From IMG/VR virus record IMGVR_UViG_2585427793_000010: a DNA stretch of 9,651 nucleotides; one strand, 5' to 3'. Source of the DNA: a virus (taxonomy: Duplodnaviria; Heunggongvirae; Uroviricota; Caudoviricetes). The notes under the pieces were generated by a model that had not been told where the DNA came from, did no database searches, and saw nothing but the letters and a program-made list of their open reading frames with translations. The translations under genes were made by a program, and so were the position numbers. This document shows, piece by piece, positions 1 to 7,997 of this stretch (the first letter of the stretch is position 1; each line of letters opens with the position of its first letter).

Positions 1-1158
1 ATGCTCACCGTTAAGCAGATTGAAGCAGCAAAGCCGAAAGAAAAACCATACCGCCTTCTCGATGGTAATGGCCTGTACCTTTATGTCCCTGTGTCAGGGA
101 AAAAGGTATGGCAGCTTCGCTACAAGATTGACGGTAAGGAGAAAATCCTGACCGTCGGAAAATATCCGCTTATGACTTTGCAGGAGGCAAGGGATAAAGC
201 ATGGACTGCGAGGAAAGACATCTCAGTTGGCATCGATCCTGTAAAGGCGAAAAAGGCTTCGTCTAACAACAATTCCTTTAGTGCGATTTACAAGGAATGG
301 TACGAGCACAAGAAGCAAGTATGGTCAGTAGGGTATGCAACTGAACTTGCCAAAATGTTTGACGACGACATTTTACCTATCATTGGCGGCCTTGAAATTC
401 AGGATATTGAGCCGATGCAACTGCTGGAAGTAATCCGCAGGTTTGAAGATCGCGGTGCAATGGAACGAGCCAACAAAGCACGCAGAAGATGCGGCGAGGT
501 TTTCCGTTACGCTATTGTCACCGGAAGGGCTAAATATAACCCGGCACCTGACCTTGCTGACGCCATGAAGGGATACCGCAAGAAGAACTTCCCGTTTCTT
601 CCTGCAGACCAGATCCCGGCATTCAACAAAGCACTGGCAACATTTTCAGGAAGTATCGTATCGCTCATTGCGACCAAAGTTTTACGCTACACAGCCCTAA
701 GAACGAAAGAGCTTCGTTCCATGCTATGGAAGAACGTCGATTTTGAAAATAGGATTATCACCATCGACGCCAGTGTGATGAAAGGACGCAAAATTCATGT
801 GGTTCCTATGTCAGACCAGGTAGTTGAACTTCTCACTACGCTAAGCTCCATCACCAAACCAGTCTCAGAGTTTGTTTTTGCCGGGCGCAACGATAAGAAG
901 AAGCCAATCTGCGAGAACGCGGTACTGCTTGTGATCAAACAAATCGGCTATGAGGGTCTGGAAAGCGGTCACGGATTCAGGCATGAATTCAGCACGATTA
1001 TGAACGAGCACGAATGGCCTGCTGACGCTATTGAAGTGCAACTGGCACATGCAAACGGCGGATCTGTGCGTGGGATTTACAACCATGCTCAGTATCTCGA
1101 TAAACGCAGAGAAATGATGCAATGGTGGGCGGACTGGCTTGATGAGAAGGGGGAGTGA
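1..1158 (+). CDS. intS: Prophage integrase, P4-type tyrosine recombinase
   Basis: 385-aa ORF. N-terminal arm-binding-like region (MLTVKQIEAAKPKEKPYRLLDGNGLYLYV). C-terminal catalytic signature candidates: R in TALRTKELRS, HxxR in GHGFRHEF, and Y in GIYNHAQYLDKRRE. Confidence 0.95.
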   Translation: MLTVKQIEAAKPKEKPYRLLDGNGLYLYVPVSGKKVWQLRYKIDGKEKILTVGKYPLMTLQEARDKAWTARKDISVGIDPVKAKKASSNNNSFSAIYKEWYEHKKQVWSVGYATELAKMFDDDILPIIGGLEIQDIEPMQLLEVIRRFEDRGAMERANKARRRCGEVFRYAIVTGRAKYNPAPDLADAMKGYRKKNFPFLPADQIPAFNKALATFSGSIVSLIATKVLRYTALRTKELRSMLWKNVDFENRIITIDASVMKGRKIHVVPMSDQVVELLTTLSSITKPVSEFVFAGRNDKKKPICENAVLLVIKQIGYEGLESGHGFRHEFSTIMNEHEWPADAIEVQLAHANGGSVRGIYNHAQYLDKRREMMQWWADWLDEKGE

Positions 1159-1673: not shown

Positions 1674-2590
1674 AGATATCTCTTGTAGTTCCTGTCTTCA
1701 ATGAAGAAGAAGCGATACCAATTTTTTATAAAACGGTACGTGAATTCGAAGAATTGAAGTCATATGAAGTGGAAATCGTTTTCATAAATGACGGCAGCAA
1801 AGACGCTACGGAGTCAATCATTAATGCTCTGGCTGTTTCAGATCCTCTAGTTGTTCCGCTGTCATTTACACGCAACTTTGGTAAAGAACCAGCATTGTTT
1901 GCAGGGTTAGACCATGCAACCGGGGATGCGATAATCCCAATTGATGTTGACCTGCAAGACCCGATTGAGGTTATTCCTCATCTTATTGAAAAATGGCAAG
2001 CAGGTGCTGATATGGTTCTTGCTAAAAGATCTGACCGCTCAACTGATGGACGCCTGAAGCGAAAAACGGCTGAGTGGTTCTATAAGCTCCACAATAAAAT
2101 AAGCAATCCTAAAATTGAAGAGAATGTTGGTGATTTCAGGCTGATGAGCCGTGATGTTGTCGAAAATATTAAACTTATGCCAGAACGAAACCTTTTCATG
2201 AAAGGTATTCTGAGCTGGGTAGGAGGAAAGACAGATATTGTTGAATACGTGCGAGCGGAAAGAATTGCTGGAGATACAAAATTTAATGGATGGAAACTTT
2301 GGAATTTAGCACTTGAGGGTATTACAAGCTTTTCCACATTCCCTCTTCGCATCTGGACATACATAGGGTTAGTGGTAGCCAGTGTAGCATTTATTTATGG
2401 GGCGTGGATGATTTTAGATACTATCATATTTGGAAATGCTGTTAGGGGATATCCTTCACTACTTGTTTCAATACTGTTTTTAGGTGGAATTCAGATGATT
2501 GGAATAGGAGTATTAGGTGAATATATTGGACGCACATACATTGAAACCAAAAAACGCCCGAAATACATCATCAAGAGAGTCAAAAAATGA
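1670..2590 (+). CDS. gtrB: Bactoprenol glucosyltransferase, GT2 family
   Basis: 306-aa ORF. N-terminal GT2 signature ([25 protein letters not shown] as DxD) and C-terminal hydrophobic segments. ATGA overlap with gtrA upstream and with the next gene at 2587-2590. Synonym yfdH. Confidence 0.93.
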
Positions 2591-3918
2591 ATAAAGCAAT
2601 AAAAGTATCATTGTATATATCTTTTGTTTTGATTATTTGCGCCTTATCTAAAAACATAATGATGTTAAATACATCTGATTTCGGAAGAGCCATTAAGCCA
2701 TTAATTGAAGACATACCAGCATTTACATATGACTTACCTTTATTGTATAAATTGAAAGGTCATATTGATTCAATTGATAGCTATGAGTATATAAGTTCAT
2801 ATAGTTATATTTTGTATACATACGTCCTGTTTATTAGCATTTTTACTGAATATCTTGATGCTAGGGTGTTATCGTTATTTCTAAAAGTAATATATATTTA
2901 TTCATTATATGCGATATTTACTTCATATATAAAAACAGAAAGGTATGTAACTTTATTTACATTCTTTATTTTAGCTTTTCTTATGTGTTCTTCATCAACA
3001 CTGTCAATGTTTGCATCATTCTATCAAGAGCAAATAGTTATAATTTTCCTTCCATTTTTGGTGTATTCATTAACATGCAAAAACAATAAATCTATGCTTT
3101 TGCTATTTTTTTCGTTGCTAATAATATCTACTGCTAAAAATCAATTTATATTAACCCCACTAATAGTGTATTCATATTATATTTTTTTTGATAGACACAA
3201 ACTAATTATTAAATCTGTAATATGCGTGGTGTGCTTGCTTGCGTCAATATTTGCAATATCTTATTCAAAAGGTGTTGTTGAATTAAATAAGTACCATGCA
3301 ACATACTTCGGTAGTTATCTTTATATGAAAAACAACGGGTATAAAATGCCATCGTATGTTGATGATAAGTGTGTTGGGTTAGATGCCTGGGGTAATAAAT
3401 TCGACATATCATTTGGCGCAACCCCAACAGAAGTTGGAACGGAATGTTTCGAATCTCATAAAGATGAAACGTTTTCGAATGCACTCTTTTTATTGGTTAG
3501 CAAACCAAGCACCATCTTCAAACTTCCATTTGATGATGGTGTGATGTCTCAGTATAAAGAAAATTATTTCCATGTATATAAAAAACTACACGTAATATAT
3601 GGAGAATCAAACATACTAACGACTATTACTAACATAAAAGACAATATATTTAAAAACATTAGATTTATATCATTGTTATTATTTTTTATTGCTTCTATTT
3701 TTATTAGAAATAATAAAATAAAGGCATCTTTATTTGTAGTATCTCTTTTTGGAATATCTCAATTTTATGTGTCATTTTTCGGGGAAGGATATAGAGATTT
3801 AAGCAAGCATTTATTTGGAATGTATTTTTCGTTCGACCTTTGCTTATACATAACAGTCGTTTTTTTAATTTATAAAATAATTCAAAGAAATCAAGACAAT
3901 AGCGATGTAAAGCACTAA
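2587..3918 (+). CDS. gtrS: Serotype-specific O-antigen glucosyltransferase, polytopic membrane protein
   Basis: 443-aa highly hydrophobic ORF in the third position of the gtr triad. Markedly AT-rich (about 28-30% GC by eye) compared with gtrA and gtrB, typical of horizontally acquired type-specific gtr genes. Synonym yfdI. Confidence 0.85.
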
Positions 3919-3926
3919 GTTTAAAT

Positions 3927-3948
3927 TGCGCGCCAATCATGGCGCGCA
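3927..3948. terminator. GC-rich hairpin between the convergent gtrS and tail-fibre-fragment ORFs; possible bidirectional terminator
   Basis: Perfect 8-bp stem TGCGCGCC / GGCGCGCA with 6-nt loop AATCAT, 9 nt after the gtrS stop and 5 nt beyond the stop of the minus-strand ORF ending at 3953. No strong U-tract on either side, hence low confidence. Confidence 0.3.
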
Positions 3949-3952
3949 CAAG

Positions 3953-4282
3953 CTATAATACCAACCTAATTTCTCCTCCTCTTAGAGTGACTATATCTCC
4001 TGATAGAATTGCGGTATTGACTATCAAATGCCCTGATTCGTTGTTTATTGTAATATCTCCTCTATCTGCAGACGATAACTTAAATGCATCATTGCCCACA
4101 ACAAACCCCCTCCAGAACCAAGTGCTGATATTATCATCAACAGTGATAGATACATATACTAACTGATTATCGTTATAAGTGATTCCTGTCTTATACTTAA
4201 CATAAGGACTTCCACTTTGATTCTCGATAGACACATAACATCCAGGGGTTATGTTTGTATGCGTCCCGCGACTATCGCCCCA
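3953..4282 (-). pseudogene. Tail-fibre-like C-terminal fragment, AT-rich and N-terminally truncated
   Basis: The minus-strand frame is open for about 109 codons (stop on the plus strand at 4283-4285) in about 35% GC DNA, where stop-free runs are improbable. Product is beta-rich and N/G/S/T-rich (…ITINNESGHLIVNTAILSGDIVTLRGGEIRLVL), as in fibre tip domains. GTG start at 4234 has no good RBS. Family assignment is inference. Confidence 0.3.
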
Positions 4283-4561
4283 TTAACGCCATACGATAAA
4301 TGGGATGGTGAGAAATGGGTGACGGATACCGAGGCACAGCATAGCGTCGCAGTAGATGCAGCAGAAGCACAGCGCCAGTCGCTGATTGATACTGCAATGG
4401 CTTCCATTAGTCTGATTCAACTGAAATTACAGGCTGGGCGGAAGCTGATGCAGGCAGAGACCTCCCGACTTAACACTGTGCTGGATTACATTGACGCGGT
4501 GACGGCAACAGATACCAGCACCGCGCCGGATGTCATCTGGCCTGAACTGCCGGAGGAGTAG
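4217..4561 (+). pseudogene. tfaS: Tail fibre assembly protein fragment, N-terminally truncated
   Basis: C-terminal two-thirds of a lambda-Tfa-like protein (…YDKWDGEKWVTDTEA…TDTSTAPDVIWPELPEE). ORF begins at TTG 4217 with an internal ATG at 4259; Tfa-like sequence starts only at about 4262, coinciding with the GC-content breakpoint. Confidence 0.7.
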
Positions 4562-4973
4562 GCCATTCAATATCTGGCGCACTGGAAGTATCGACCAGCT
4601 CCAGTGCGTCCAGATAATCCAGCCACAAATTATATTGCGCCAGTTCCTCACCTTTCAGACGACCAATAGCCGCTTTACCAGCCCATTGTTTACTGTTCAT
4701 ATAATCGTTGGCCTGATTAATCAATTGCTGCTTTTTCAGTTCGGCTGCAGCAATCTGTTCCTCATGTGTTGGTGGTGGAATTTCAGACCATGCAGGAAAA
4801 CCATTTTCTCCAGCGATACGGATTTTTCCTTTCGGCGGTAATCCGGAAAACTCAATATACACTTGCTCATCAACTTCAACAGCATCATCTGGCCATGAGC
4901 CAGCTTGCGTGTAATCCTCTTTCATCTCCAAGGGATAGAAAGAGTTTGTAGTCGCGGAATATATGTAATTCAT
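4533..4973 (-). CDS. yfdK: Tail fibre assembly protein (Tfa family), full length
   Basis: 146-aa ORF with Tfa-type C-terminus (…VDTSSAPDIEWPTPPAVQAR). GGAG RBS 6 nt upstream of the ATG at 4973. Its 3' end overlaps the tfaS 3' end tail-to-tail by 29 bp. Confidence 0.85.
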   Translation of the reverse strand: MNYIYSATTNSFYPLEMKEDYTQAGSWPDDAVEVDEQVYIEFSGLPPKGKIRIAGENGFPAWSEIPPPTHEEQIAAAELKKQQLINQANDYMNSKQWAGKAAIGRLKGEELAQYNLWLDYLDALELVDTSSAPDIEWPTPPAVQAR

Positions 4974-4999
4974 TTTTCACTCCATAAAGTTAAAAGAAA

Positions 5000-5641
5000 T
5001 TAATACCCTAATGCGAAAAATGAAGCACCGATACCGGGTACGCCTGCTCTGGAAATAAATTTCACCGGGTCCTGGTTATAACCGGCACAAGCTATATAGC
5101 CAACATTTGCACTGCCGGGAGTGTAATCCTGAGTCGCAAATACCCGCAGACATCTATTCGGAAATGCAATCGGAAAATAGGTTACTGTGTCCTGAGACGT
5201 CAGCGGAACATCAATTGGCCCCCATTGAATAATTAAACCGGATGGCAATTTTTGATATCCAGGAACTGAAGCAGAAAGCATAAAACTACCCATATCAGGT
5301 ATCTGATTCGCCCCTGTCCCTACATTTCTTTTAGCCGCTTCTCCCAAACCAAGGTTTTCGAGAGCCTTTTGCACCGTGCCGTCCAATTTGATATCGCCAA
5401 ACGGATTCTTGCGGCTTAACAGCAGCGCACGAAGCGCGGTAAGCAGCTGGTCATGCCGCCCCTTCTCCAGGCTGGCACCGGAGGCCTCCACAACGCTGCA
5501 AAGCTCCTCCTGCAACATGTCAAAGTAGTCATCATCCAGATCGGTGGCAGGCGTGCCGGTCTGGGGGTTACCACGGGTAAAACCGTTCTTACCCGCGCCG
5601 AACTTATCCTTCTGCGCGGTTTTCGTGTCTATACGATGCAT
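5000..5641 (-). CDS. yfdL: Tail fibre protein, short or rearranged
   Basis: 213-aa ORF immediately upstream of yfdK on the same strand (fibre then tfa order). The ATG at 5641 is preceded by GGAG with a 6-nt spacer, supporting the long form over the internal Met-42 start (172 aa). Fibre-like C-terminal region (…[19 protein letters not shown]…). Confidence 0.65.
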
Positions 5642-5644
5642 GGA

Positions 5645-5845
5645 TTACTCCGGATATTTAAAAATTACGTAGGTATGCGACGGGCAGAGTTTGTTAAGCA
5701 CACACTCGACAACGGTGTCACCCCAGATACGCAGTGCGGAATCACAGGGATCGCCACATGTCATCCAGGTGGTGTTGGCGGCGGCTGGCATGTTGACCTG
5801 CCAGTAATACCGCCATTCCGGCGCATTCACAGCGTCAGTAGGCAC
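5645..5845 (-). CDS. Hypothetical small protein upstream of and coupled to yfdL; possibly a gene fragment
   Basis: 66-codon ORF with GTG start. Its TAA stop lies 3 nt before the yfdL ATG, and the yfdL RBS (GGAG) sits in its last codons. No recognisable motifs. An in-frame stop lies immediately upstream, so it cannot be longer. Confidence 0.35.
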
Positions 5846-5847
5846 TC

Positions 5848-6144
5848 ATGTTAAAGCAGGTGTATGAAATGAAAGTCCAGATTTTAAACAATAACTGTGA
5901 AGTCGTTTGGTCATACGACATAGCCGCCCCTGTAGATCAGAGCGGCGATAGCTGGACCAATGGGAAACATCAGATTATGGCTGGAGTTGTGTTCTCTTTA
6001 CGCCGTGCTTTGGAACAGGCTGAAGTATTTCCATCAGACCCTGAATGGAAATGGCCTTTTTCTATTTGTCCAAATTCGGAGAGCACATTTCAGAAAATTG
6101 GTCAGAAAGTCGCACTCGAAGAGCATCAGCCAACTGTTTCCTGA
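5848..6144 (+). CDS. Hypothetical ORF; questionable
   Basis: 98 codons from ATG 5848 (alternative ATG at 5869 with AGGTG 9 nt upstream). No long minus-strand frame exists across 5846-6061. Its 3' end overlaps the convergent 81-codon ORF by 83 bp, so at most one of the pair is probably fully genuine. Confidence 0.2.
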   Translation: MLKQVYEMKVQILNNNCEVVWSYDIAAPVDQSGDSWTNGKHQIMAGVVFSLRRALEQAEVFPSDPEWKWPFSICPNSESTFQKIGQKVALEEHQPTVS

Positions 6145-6307
6145 TTTTTTCAGGTAACTCGTCGGCATCGCAGAAACAACAACGCTCGATCATGTTGAAA
6201 GCCGATTCGTAGAACTGTTTCTGCTGAGTGTCGCTGAGACAGGAAAAGAGCGACGTTACGATGATTTTATTAATTGCATTATCAAGTTCTTTTTCATCAA
6301 AAGTCAT
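6062..6307 (-). CDS. Hypothetical 81-aa protein with a Cys cluster, first gene of the leftward unit
   Basis: ATG at 6307 preceded by AAGGAA RBS (6-nt spacer) and an in-frame TAA four codons further upstream, so the ORF is complete. Product MTFDEKELDNAINK…ERCCFCDADELPEK…; no HTH recognisable. Transcribed divergently from the yfdP operon. Confidence 0.5.
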   Translation of the reverse strand: MTFDEKELDNAINKIIVTSLFSCLSDTQQKQFYESAFNMIERCCFCDADELPEKIRKQLADALRVRLSDQFSEMCSPNLDK

Positions 6308-6560
6308 TTGATTTTCCTTTTATGTATACGGGCTTAAAAGGATACCACCGAGCCTGAAGTGGTGAAAAGACAGGCACATAACAGCTAAGTATTTTCAACC
6401 AAAGAGAATCCTTAGCGTTGTGGTGAATGCGGCTCAGCGCACGCGGGTTAAGGTTGAGGCTGACAGTCGACCTTCTGTGGATACCCACCCGTCTGGTGTG
6501 CAACCTTCGCCAGGCACCGGGAGGCACCCGGCACCACAACTTTATGCTGTGTGTAGTCCT

Positions 6561-6607
6561 GGCGGTACCAGTTTGTGCCCTTGCTTCCGGCTGGTACCGT
6601 CCTTTTT
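6561..6607 (+). terminator. Terminator-like hairpin with T5 tract inside the GC-rich intergenic region
   Basis: Arms CGGTACCAG (6563-6571) and CTGGTACCG (6591-6599), extendable to 11 bp with one G-U pair, followed by TCC then TTTTT (6603-6607). The 19-nt loop lowers confidence. Confidence 0.25.
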
Positions 6608-6744
6608 ACAAAACAGAGAAGAGCATCACCGGACGACGGGCTCATAACCCAATCCATCCGGGCGGCTGCCACCGCAGGTGTTCTTCTCTGTTTTGTGGAG
6701 AAACTAATCGGCCTTGCAGCGTCGATATGATGAGGAGCAGCAAA

Positions 6745-7107
6745 ATGGCTAGCGAACGCAGTACTGATGTGCAGGCATTTATCGGGGAGCTGGACGGCGG
6801 CGTATTTGAAACCAAAATCGGCGCAGTTCTCAGTGAAGTCGCTTCCGGTGTGATGAACACGAAAACCAAAGGTAAGGTCTCACTCAACCTGGAAATCGAA
6901 CCATTTGATGAGAACCGTCTGAAAATCAAACACAAACTCTCATATGTTCGCCCGACTAACCGTGGGAAAATTTCCGAAGAAGACACCACCGAAACGCCGA
7001 TGTATGTCAATCGCGGTGGTCGCCTGACTATTCTGCAGGAAGACCAGGGACAATTACTGACTCTTGCCGGTGAGCCTGACGGAAAACTCCGCGCAGCAGG
7101 TCATTAA
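6745..7107 (+). CDS. yfdP: Conserved prophage protein of unknown function, first gene of the rightward operon
   Basis: 120-aa product from ATG 6745, preceded by GAGGAG (6732-6737) with a 7-nt spacer. The 106 in-frame codons upstream (from 6427) are Arg/Cys-rich low-complexity read-through of GC-rich DNA and are judged non-coding. Confidence 0.8.
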   Translation: MASERSTDVQAFIGELDGGVFETKIGAVLSEVASGVMNTKTKGKVSLNLEIEPFDENRLKIKHKLSYVRPTNRGKISEEDTTETPMYVNRGGRLTILQEDQGQLLTLAGEPDGKLRAAGH

Positions 7108-7172
7108 TATCATTCTTAATTAACTAATTATTTATCTCATCACTGAATATCTTAATATAGTGAGGACTTATT

Positions 7173-7997
7173 ATGTCTCAGAACTTAGACGCAACCGCAA
7201 TTAATCAAATCCATGCCCTTATTTCTGCTCAGGGTGTTAATGAAATTATCAGTAAGATTGGTGCCGATGCTGTGGCATTGCCTGAGAATTTCCGCATTCA
7301 TGATCTGGAAAAATTTAATTTAAATCGCTTCCGTTTCCGTGGTGCGCTTTCCACTGCCAGCATCGATGACTTTACCCGTTATTCTAAAGATCTTGCAGAT
7401 GAAGGCACCCGCTGCTTTATCGATGCTGATAATATGCGTGCCGTCAGTGTGCTTAACCTGGGTACTATTGATGAACCAGGTCACGCAGATAACACCGCCA
7501 CTCTCAAACTGAAAAAGACAGCACCGTTCTCTGCCCTGTTGTCTGTTAACGGCGAGCGTAACTCCCAGAAATCACTGGCAGAATGGATTGAAGACTGGGC
7601 CGACTACCTTGTGGGCTTTGATGCTAATGGTGACGCCATTCAGGCAACAAAAGCGGCTGCGGCAATCCGTAAAATCACGATTGAAGCAAACCAGACCGCT
7701 GATTTTGAAGATAATGACTTCAGCGGCAAACGCTCCCTGATGGAATCTGTCGAAGCGAAGACCAAAGACATTATGCCAGTGGCATTTGAATTTAAATGCG
7801 TTCCGTTTGAAGGTCTGAAAGAACGTCCGTTTAAATTACGCCTCAGCATTATCACTGGCGATCGTCCTGTACTGGTTCTGCGCATTATTCAGCTGGAAGC
7901 GGTGCAGGAAGATATGGCTAACGAATTTCGTGATCTGCTTGTTGAGAAATTCAAAGACAGCAAAGTAGAAACCTTTATTGGTACTTTCACCGCCTGA
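7173..7997 (+). CDS. yfdQ: Conserved prophage protein of unknown function; DUF2303-like by recollection
   Basis: 274-aa ORF with GAGGA RBS 6 nt upstream of the ATG. Acidic, soluble-looking protein with no catalytic motif recognisable by eye. Confidence 0.88.

Follow-up and report, generated by a model that had tools for sequence, protein, structure and literature searches.

How did two convergent tail-fibre assembly genes, tfaS and yfdK, come to lie beside a single fibre gene in a cryptic prophage, and were they once part of a switch? The genes lie within a 9,651-bp stretch of E. coli DNA (the window), a variant of the cryptic prophage CPS-53/KplE1 that is ~99.9-100% identical to K-12 and, over most of its length, 99.8% identical to strain 1409. 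A sequence-only reading had proposed a scrambled, partly deleted relic of an invertible tail-fibre cassette. Positions 4271-5840 are very probably the surviving half of an e14-type invertible segment (Pin/Din family), the invertase end having been lost in a module exchange at 4270/4271. The inversion system is well known, and the locus is an ordinary, degenerate example of it.

The genes of the window run in the order intS, yfdG/gtrA, yfdH/gtrB, yfdI, yodE, tfaS', yfdK, yfdL, a fragment of ymfQ, and then yfdP to torI (Table 1). The MG1655 annotation has the same genes as tfaS (a pseudogene), yfdK, yfdL and yodE. A promoter and terminator scan of 3850-6450 gave results no better than shuffled sequence.

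Table 1. Features of the prophage window, in window coordinates
Feature	Coordinates	Strand	Description
intS	1-1158		
yfdI	2587-3918		
P22-like tailspike gene, 3′ remnant	3953-4270	-	last ~105 codons and stop; found by phmmer and tblastn
yodE	3953-4099	-	toxic 48-aa protein of the ryeG transcript; from annotation; within the tailspike remnant
tfaS'	4271-4561	+	C-terminal 96 codons (residues 105-200) of a TfaE-type assembly gene, U' equivalent; N-terminal half deleted
tfaS'/yfdK overlap	4533-4561	.	antiparallel 3′ ends, 29 bp; stops TAG 4559-4561 (+) and TGA 4533-4535 (TCA on the + strand)
yfdK	4533-4973	-	intact tail-fibre assembly chaperone, U equivalent, cognate to the yfdL tip; Caudo_TAP
yfdL	5000-5641	-	full-length short tail-fibre gene, 213 aa; Gp53-like_C at residues 131-213, E 1e-18
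yfdL variable tip (Sv)	5000-5350	-	residues 98-213
Orphan Pin-type (pix) crossover site	5339-5364	.	TTCTCCCAAACCAAGGTTTTCGAGAG; perfect 26 bp, inside yfdL
yfdL constant part (Sc)	5351-5641	-	residues 1-97
ymfQ fragment	5645-5845	-	C-terminal 64-66 codons of a baseplate gene (Mu gp48 family); 95% identical to e14 YmfQ residues 131-194

Both assembly genes are Tfa-like, as had been claimed: the Pfam family Caudo_TAP matches tfaS (E 7e-25, profile positions 34-131 only) and yfdK (E 2e-39, full profile). Their tail-to-tail overlap also holds, the stop positions giving exactly 29 bp. Since the P segment of e14 (tfaP/tfaE), L003 and L004 (described below), phage SfIV and vB_EcoM-720R4 all have the identical overlap, it is an inherited trait of this cassette type and not a product of chance. 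In Mu, by contrast, U and U' do not overlap but are separated by a 28-bp gap. The vB_EcoM-720R4 record starts at the tfaE start codon and ends in early genes, and so cannot show the state of an invertase.

The two genes are not equally preserved. The program listing places tfaS at 4217-4561 (+) with a TTG start at 4217, but by blastn the genuine TfaE homology begins at 4271, which is the exact start of DNA homology between the window and L004, e14, SfIV and 720R4. A tblastn match reaching out to 4229 is of low identity and was discounted as chance, since in five relatives the DNA homology begins at 4271. TfaS' is 93.7% identical to residues 105-199 of e14 TfaE and 89.5% identical to the TfaE of L004. 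The chaperone pair of a Din-family segment is thus present as two convergent genes, with yfdK intact and tfaS' shortened to residues 105-200.

Upstream of yfdK lies the fibre gene yfdL, which the sequence-only reading had placed correctly and which the Gp53-like_C match identifies. It had seen no crossover sites, whereas yfdL contains a perfect one, reading TTCTCCCAAACC-AA-GGTTTTCGAGAG, with its central dinucleotide at 5351-5352. The site is in frame and falls within the stretch encoding ALENLGLGE, its central dinucleotide being in codon 97; it occurs once in the window, with 0 copies expected from shuffles. It agrees at 26/26 positions with the stfP-side (Sc-side) site in the P segment of e14, and all relatives examined (L001-L004, L017, L020 and SfIV) have an identical site; it matches Mu gix at 18/26 positions (hand count). 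It also holds 15/16 bases of the e14 P-segment repeat CCTTCTCCCAAACCAA (PMC12529663).

The site divides yfdL as expected of a split fibre gene, for homology to both e14 and L003 switches there. On the fibre side, homology between the window and e14 covers only 5330-5840 (96%, taking in Sc and ymfQ) and stops at the crossover site, the tip beyond being different. The window and e14 carry different alleles of the tip (Sv, Gp53-like_C) and of most of YfdK: YfdL is 60% identical to StfP over its whole length, while YfdK is 61% identical to TfaP in C-terminal residues 51-146 only. In the window the yfdL-yfdK unit (Sc-pix-Sv-U) appears locked in the expressed (ON) orientation.

A second crossover site, an invertase and an alternative tip were sought in the window. 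Searches with the 26-bp site (up to three mismatches), with its AAACCNNGGTTT core and with the inner half-site (up to two mismatches) found no second crossover site there, and a generic inverted-repeat search gave no second arm for the site. Inverted-repeat pairs of 12-21 nt do occur in the window and look like chance. The earlier statement that no invertase is evident stands: tblastn with the L004 invertase, e14 PinE and L003 PinE detected no remnant anywhere in the window (best E 2.8). An alternative, promoterless tip (Sv') is likewise absent, tblastn of the L004 Sv' against the window giving nothing at E <= 1e-3, and its position is taken by the tailspike remnant. The Fis-dependent, cis-acting recombinational enhancer was presumably lost too, because it normally lies in the 5′ part of the invertase gene, which is absent. 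The segment, left with a single site and lacking an invertase in cis, cannot invert by itself.

What the intact form looks like can be seen in a prophage of E. coli 23CRST025 (L004), which is colinear with window 4271-5840 at 91.5% identity. Its genes run integrase, DinI, a 187-aa serine recombinase (56% identical to PinE, 51% to Gin), a 164-aa Sv', a 200-aa TfaE, then convergent homologues of YfdK (96.6% identical) and YfdL (86%), ymfQ and Mu-like baseplate genes. Two crossover sites in inverted orientation lie at 5178-5203 and 7064-7089 of L004, the distal one being TTCTCCCAAACC-AA-CCTTTGAAATAT. This is the window's layout with a serine recombinase and two inverted sites, and it bears out the proposal of a frozen, partly deleted relic of the Gin/Pin/Cin type. 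The further label 'shufflon' is a misnomer for a serine-invertase switch, because shufflons use the tyrosine recombinase Rci.

The same architecture is found in the G segment of Mu (Sc / site / Sv-U / U'-Sv' / site / invertase, downstream of the baseplate genes gp47/gp48) with its invertase Gin, and in the C segment of P1 with Cin. Unlike Mu, the window has a single site and lacks an invertase. PinE and Gin share 78% identity; YfdK is only weakly similar to U' (32% over 73 aa). The P segment of e14 has the window's gene order of ymfQ, a fibre gene containing the in-frame site, a tfa gene and a convergent tfaE, with DNA identity of 96% across Sc and ymfQ and 94% identity between TfaS' and TfaE. 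It retains what the window is without: pinE, a second tip of the stfE type, the pin-proximal site and TfaE residues 1-104. A 2025 study showed experimentally that PinE, PinQ and PinR invert this segment at TTGGTTTGGGAGAAGG / CCTTCTCCCAAACCAA repeats (PMC12529663).

An invertase gene is present in L003, L004 and e14, and the relatives appear to include both orientation states. In L003 (strain ETEC-2264) the same tip-tfa-tfaE cassette, bounded by the site, lies in the orientation opposite to that of the window, and a yfdL-type tip abuts the pinE-proximal half-site. The match of the window to L003 is interrupted within the 26-bp site or at its edge. These observations point to recombination at the equivalent site in relatives. 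Two chimeric 200-bp probes, of which at least 80% had to be covered, were compared with 5,426 complete E. coli genomes. The probe for the ON junction, in which the tip start adjoins the constant fibre part, matched 629 of them; the probe for the OFF junction, in which it adjoins the invertase flank, matched 725, where a recombinase gene underlies the match. Since part of the 100-bp tip arm (~5281-5338) is conserved across tip types, both figures count a class of tips and not strictly the yfdL tip.

A different case is SfIV, an SfV-like serotype-converting myophage of Shigella that is viable and inducible. It is syntenic with CPS-53 gene for gene (fibre, tfa, a reversed tfa remnant, gtr, int, xis and homologues of YfdT/S/R/Q/P), and it shares with the window a single pix site, the 29-bp overlap and the lack of an invertase, none being found anywhere in its genome. 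Its TfaE remnant extends further (residues 30-200) and has an IS element next to it where the window has a tailspike fragment, and its integrase module and Sv-U allele differ from those of the window. The Sv-U stretch between ~4595 and 5281 is a different allele from the window's both in SfIV and in an IMG/VR contig that shares the 4270/4271 junction; such allele differences are the familiar mosaicism of fibre tips.

SfIV bears directly on whether the convergent pair might instead be a fixed, never-invertible trait in which two chaperones serve one fibre and tfaS is an accessory second chaperone. A viable phage with the pair and no invertase is what that account predicts, and ORF-22 of SfIV has been treated as an extra, functional tail-fibre assembly protein (PMC3851460). 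We nevertheless consider it very improbable. TfaS' (residues 105-200) and SfIV gp22 (30-200) are N-terminally truncated versions of a 200-aa TfaE that, in its full form in L004, e14 and L003, follows its own tip and adjoins the invertase gene; the differing truncation points indicate independent decay, and yfdL retains a perfect crossover site. The sequence-only reading had named a fixed convergent tfa pair in a lineage with no invertase as the outcome that would count against it: SfIV goes some way towards that outcome, but invertases are common elsewhere in the lineage. If the locus is a surviving half-switch, the 'extra' truncated tfa of serotype-converting phages (SfIV and others) would be the remainder left once the int/gtr conversion module has replaced the invertase end.

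Nor do we expect the orphan site to work in trans, as one part of a distributed inversion system in which PinE, PinQ and PinR of K-12 recombine the yfdL site with the e14 pix. In favour of this account, the yfdL site is a 26/26 match to an e14 site on which PinE, PinQ and PinR act (PMC12529663). It is nevertheless rated highly unlikely. Din invertases, as known from Hin and Gin, depend on a cis-located enhancer and on a synapse of defined supercoiled form, and the two sites lie ~1.26 Mb apart in K-12. A BLAST survey with CPS-53 as query, moreover, found inversions in e14 only and none in CPS-53 (PMC12529663). The lack of inversion in CPS-53 in that survey agrees with a locked segment. K-12 does contain three active Pin enzymes together with an additional perfect target site outside e14.

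We return to the half-switch and to what now occupies its missing end. On the minus strand a tailspike reading frame runs from ~4273 down to the stop at 3953-3955 (the listed open reading frame being 3953-4234), so that tailspike homology reaches ~4271-4273, up to the start of tfaS'. All phmmer matches are to the extreme C-terminus of proteins of 519-862 aa; those at E < 1e-10, CPS-53 fragments aside, are to the last ~105 residues of proteins of 519-758 aa. By tblastn the frame matches the last 93 aa of a phage tail fibre/spike protein. The best full-length relative (P0005) has a P22 Head_binding domain (E 8e-66), is 43% identical to the fragment over 106 aa (residues 535-640 of 640) and is encoded after gp20/gp16/mnt-arc in a P22-like prophage. 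Other full-length relatives have a TSP1/Gp66 tail-spike N-terminal domain or a beta-helix region, while two weaker matches (P0016 and P0020) have tail-collar fibre N-termini. Of the full tailspike architecture (head-binding, beta-helix and C-terminal domains) only the C-terminal ~105 residues are present; 3953-4270 is a tailspike remnant, neither a tailspike gene nor part of the invertible cassette.

For the 93-aa ORF, a word-indexed homologue search and two IMG/VR scans returned only other copies of CPS-53, and no full-length donor tailspike at high identity. Contigs encoding P0003 show CPS-53 contexts only, some belonging to engineered strains with CAT or GFP.

The orientation of the fragment is explained by the neighbouring module. 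IntS shares 98-99.7% identity with the integrases of CUS-3, Sf6 and HK620, all of them P22-like phages (98.4-99.7%). KplE1 is known to share its recombination module with P22-like phages, and the IntS identities agree with that description (PMC2951348). The module order in P22-like phages (Lederbergvirus) is as in the window: xis, attP, int, gtrA, gtrB, gtrC and a convergent tailspike gene. HF4s has xis, int, gtrA, gtrB, gtrC and a convergent tailspike gene, and Sf6 has int, oac and a convergent tailspike gene. The window differs from these phages in that a myovirus fibre and baseplate module replaces the podovirus late region, with ~105 codons of the tailspike left.

The sequence-only reading had described an additional fibre fragment in the wrong orientation. 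It was right that 3953-4234 encodes a piece of a receptor-binding protein, but the piece is the 3′ end of a tailspike gene and not of a fibre cassette, and it stands in its normal place, convergent with int-gtrABC. Since this orientation is normal for an int-gtr module, as in HF4s and Sf6, the fragment is not a scrambled cassette element, and the locus is a chimera of two modules. That past inversions in a multi-segment (Min- or shufflon-like) cassette left 3953-4270 as a third tip in aberrant orientation is hardly tenable, although a receptor-binding-protein C-terminus does adjoin the cassette: its closest identifiable full-length relatives are tailspikes, it is placed and oriented exactly as the HF4s and Sf6 tailspike genes are, no crossover site adjoins it, and the tfaS' junction falls mid-gene at TfaE codon 105 and not at a site.

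The fragment also gives an origin for YodE, the protein whose toxicity has been reported with ryeG (PMC7498339). Its homology to the last 48 residues of a P22-type tailspike C-terminal domain can be regarded, from the alignments, as essentially shown, and offers a structural starting point for studies of toxicity. The ryeG RNA was not recovered in an Rfam search of 3700-6500, where no family reached the gathering threshold. It is conceivable, but improbable, that the relic is not inert, with the orphan pix a live Pin substrate or YfdL and YfdK acting as decoys, and with YodE exapted from the tailspike domain. A live pix could allow rare Pin-mediated recombination between CPS-53 and e14, leading to a megabase-scale inversion or to capture of a new tip cassette; in an active relic YfdL and YfdK could contribute to phage defence as surface decoys, in the manner of StfP2 and StfE2, the chimeras of e14.

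The origin of a half-switch can be reconstructed as follows. The carrier would have been an SfIV/SfV-like temperate phage with a lambdoid genome and a Mu-like tail. In its intact cassette the 26-bp site would join the fibre Sc in frame to one of two tips, each followed by its own chaperone, with the tip-chaperone units tail to tail and the serine invertase gene just outside the distal site. A single illegitimate junction, joining about codon -105 of a tailspike gene to TfaE codon 105, would then have removed the 5′ half of tfaE, the second tip, the second site, the invertase gene and the enhancer, and fused the remainder to the 3′ end of a P22-like tailspike gene travelling with the intS-gtrABS module for lysogenic conversion and integration. 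An L004-like lambdoid phage with a myovirus tail may thus have acquired a tailspike-gtr-int end of the P22-like kind in place of its own invertase/int end.

Such a loss is likely to have been a module swap in a live phage and not decay of a prophage, because a viable phage, SfIV, has a comparable frozen relic with no invertase. The swap could have happened while the phage was viable, since yfdL and yfdK make up a complete fibre-plus-chaperone set; on viability we draw on SfIV and on a 28.8-kb contig, seen only in part. The window has its 4270/4271 junction in common with K-12, with strain 1409 and with an IMG/VR contig in which baseplate and tape-measure genes are still present. Neither the donor tailspike gene nor the exact parental sequences of this junction were found, and the event is reconstructed from its endpoints.

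The main benefit of this reading is a cleaner annotation for a much-used model genome, in which tfaS, yfdK and yfdL become one locked half of a Pin switch of the e14 type and the 26-bp yfdL site becomes an orphan recombination site. A literature search found no publication that describes CPS-53 as a locked half of an e14-type switch.

On the right-hand side the remaining tail genes were removed by deletion. Homology of the window to L001, L004 and L017 ends at 5840, within the ymfQ fragment (which has a weak Pfam match to Phage_Mu_Gp48), and the resulting 5840/5841 junction was present in 0 complete E. coli genomes and had no exact match in GTDB species representatives. K-12 breaks instead at 5579 within yfdL, cutting off the yfdL N-terminus, and strain 1409 keeps baseplate genes as far as a fragment of the DNA-circularisation gene. 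As the end-points differ by strain (5840 here, 5579 in K-12 and further out in 1409), these deletions were probably later, strain-specific events, which would have taken the tail genes that the exchange had left in place.

Deletion to the right of the fibre genes has fused a C-terminal fragment of ymfQ to the region upstream of yfdP (junction 5840/5841 in the window), and this junction was found neither in 5,426 complete Escherichia coli genomes nor in the GTDB species representatives. In K-12 the join lies instead at 5579/6726, and strain 1409 has a third junction, which passes from 5840 to 6957 and retains the baseplate genes. Since the junctions differ among the window, K-12 and strain 1409, decay of the CPS-53 prophage is independent in several lineages. 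The yfdP ORF of the window is equal in length to SfIV gp34 (681 bp). In K-12, where yfdP is annotated at 120 aa, it probably lost its 5′ part to that strain's own deletion.

Across window positions 4595-5281, a CPS-53-like IMG/VR contig and Shigella phage SfIV share the flanks and carry a different tip-plus-chaperone allele, whose YfdK homologue is ~36-37% identical. The mosaic boundaries fall in the conserved Tfa C-terminus and ~60 bp to the tip side of the crossover site.

SfIV gp22, reported as a 'unique additional tail fiber assembly protein', is not an extra complete chaperone; it comprises only residues 30-200 of TfaE, its N-terminus missing, adjoins an IS element, and is what remains there of the invertible cassette also represented in the window.

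Coordinates of features (window positions unless another sequence is named)
Feature	Position	Strand	Remark
SfIV gp22	SfIV (L018) 6767-7291		N-terminally truncated TfaE
yfdP ORF	6427-7107	+	226 aa
P22-like tailspike C-terminal domain remnant	3953-4270	-	
yodE	3953-4099	-	inside tailspike remnant
yfdI	2587-3918	+	serotype-specific glucosyltransferase gene
IS3 in yfdH/gtrB	K-12 derivatives (L002) 3322-4484		window equivalent ~1756

The ryeG transcript encodes the toxic 48-aa protein YodE (PMC7498339). YodE is the final 48 residues of what is left of a P22-like tailspike C-terminal domain, and Pfam family PF23504 (YodE) matches full-length tailspikes at their C-termini as well. The Grad-seq paper characterising RyeG is silent on any derivation from a tail or tailspike, with 0 occurrences of 'tail' and 'tailspike' (PMC7498339).

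Among the gtr genes, yfdH/gtrB is free of IS3 in the window and in MG1655, and is split by it in several K-12 laboratory strains (GM4792, C600, RV308 and others). The yfdI gene is strikingly AT-rich (GC 0.25-0.34, versus 0.43-0.56 in its flanks), as is usual for gtr(type) morons gained by horizontal transfer.
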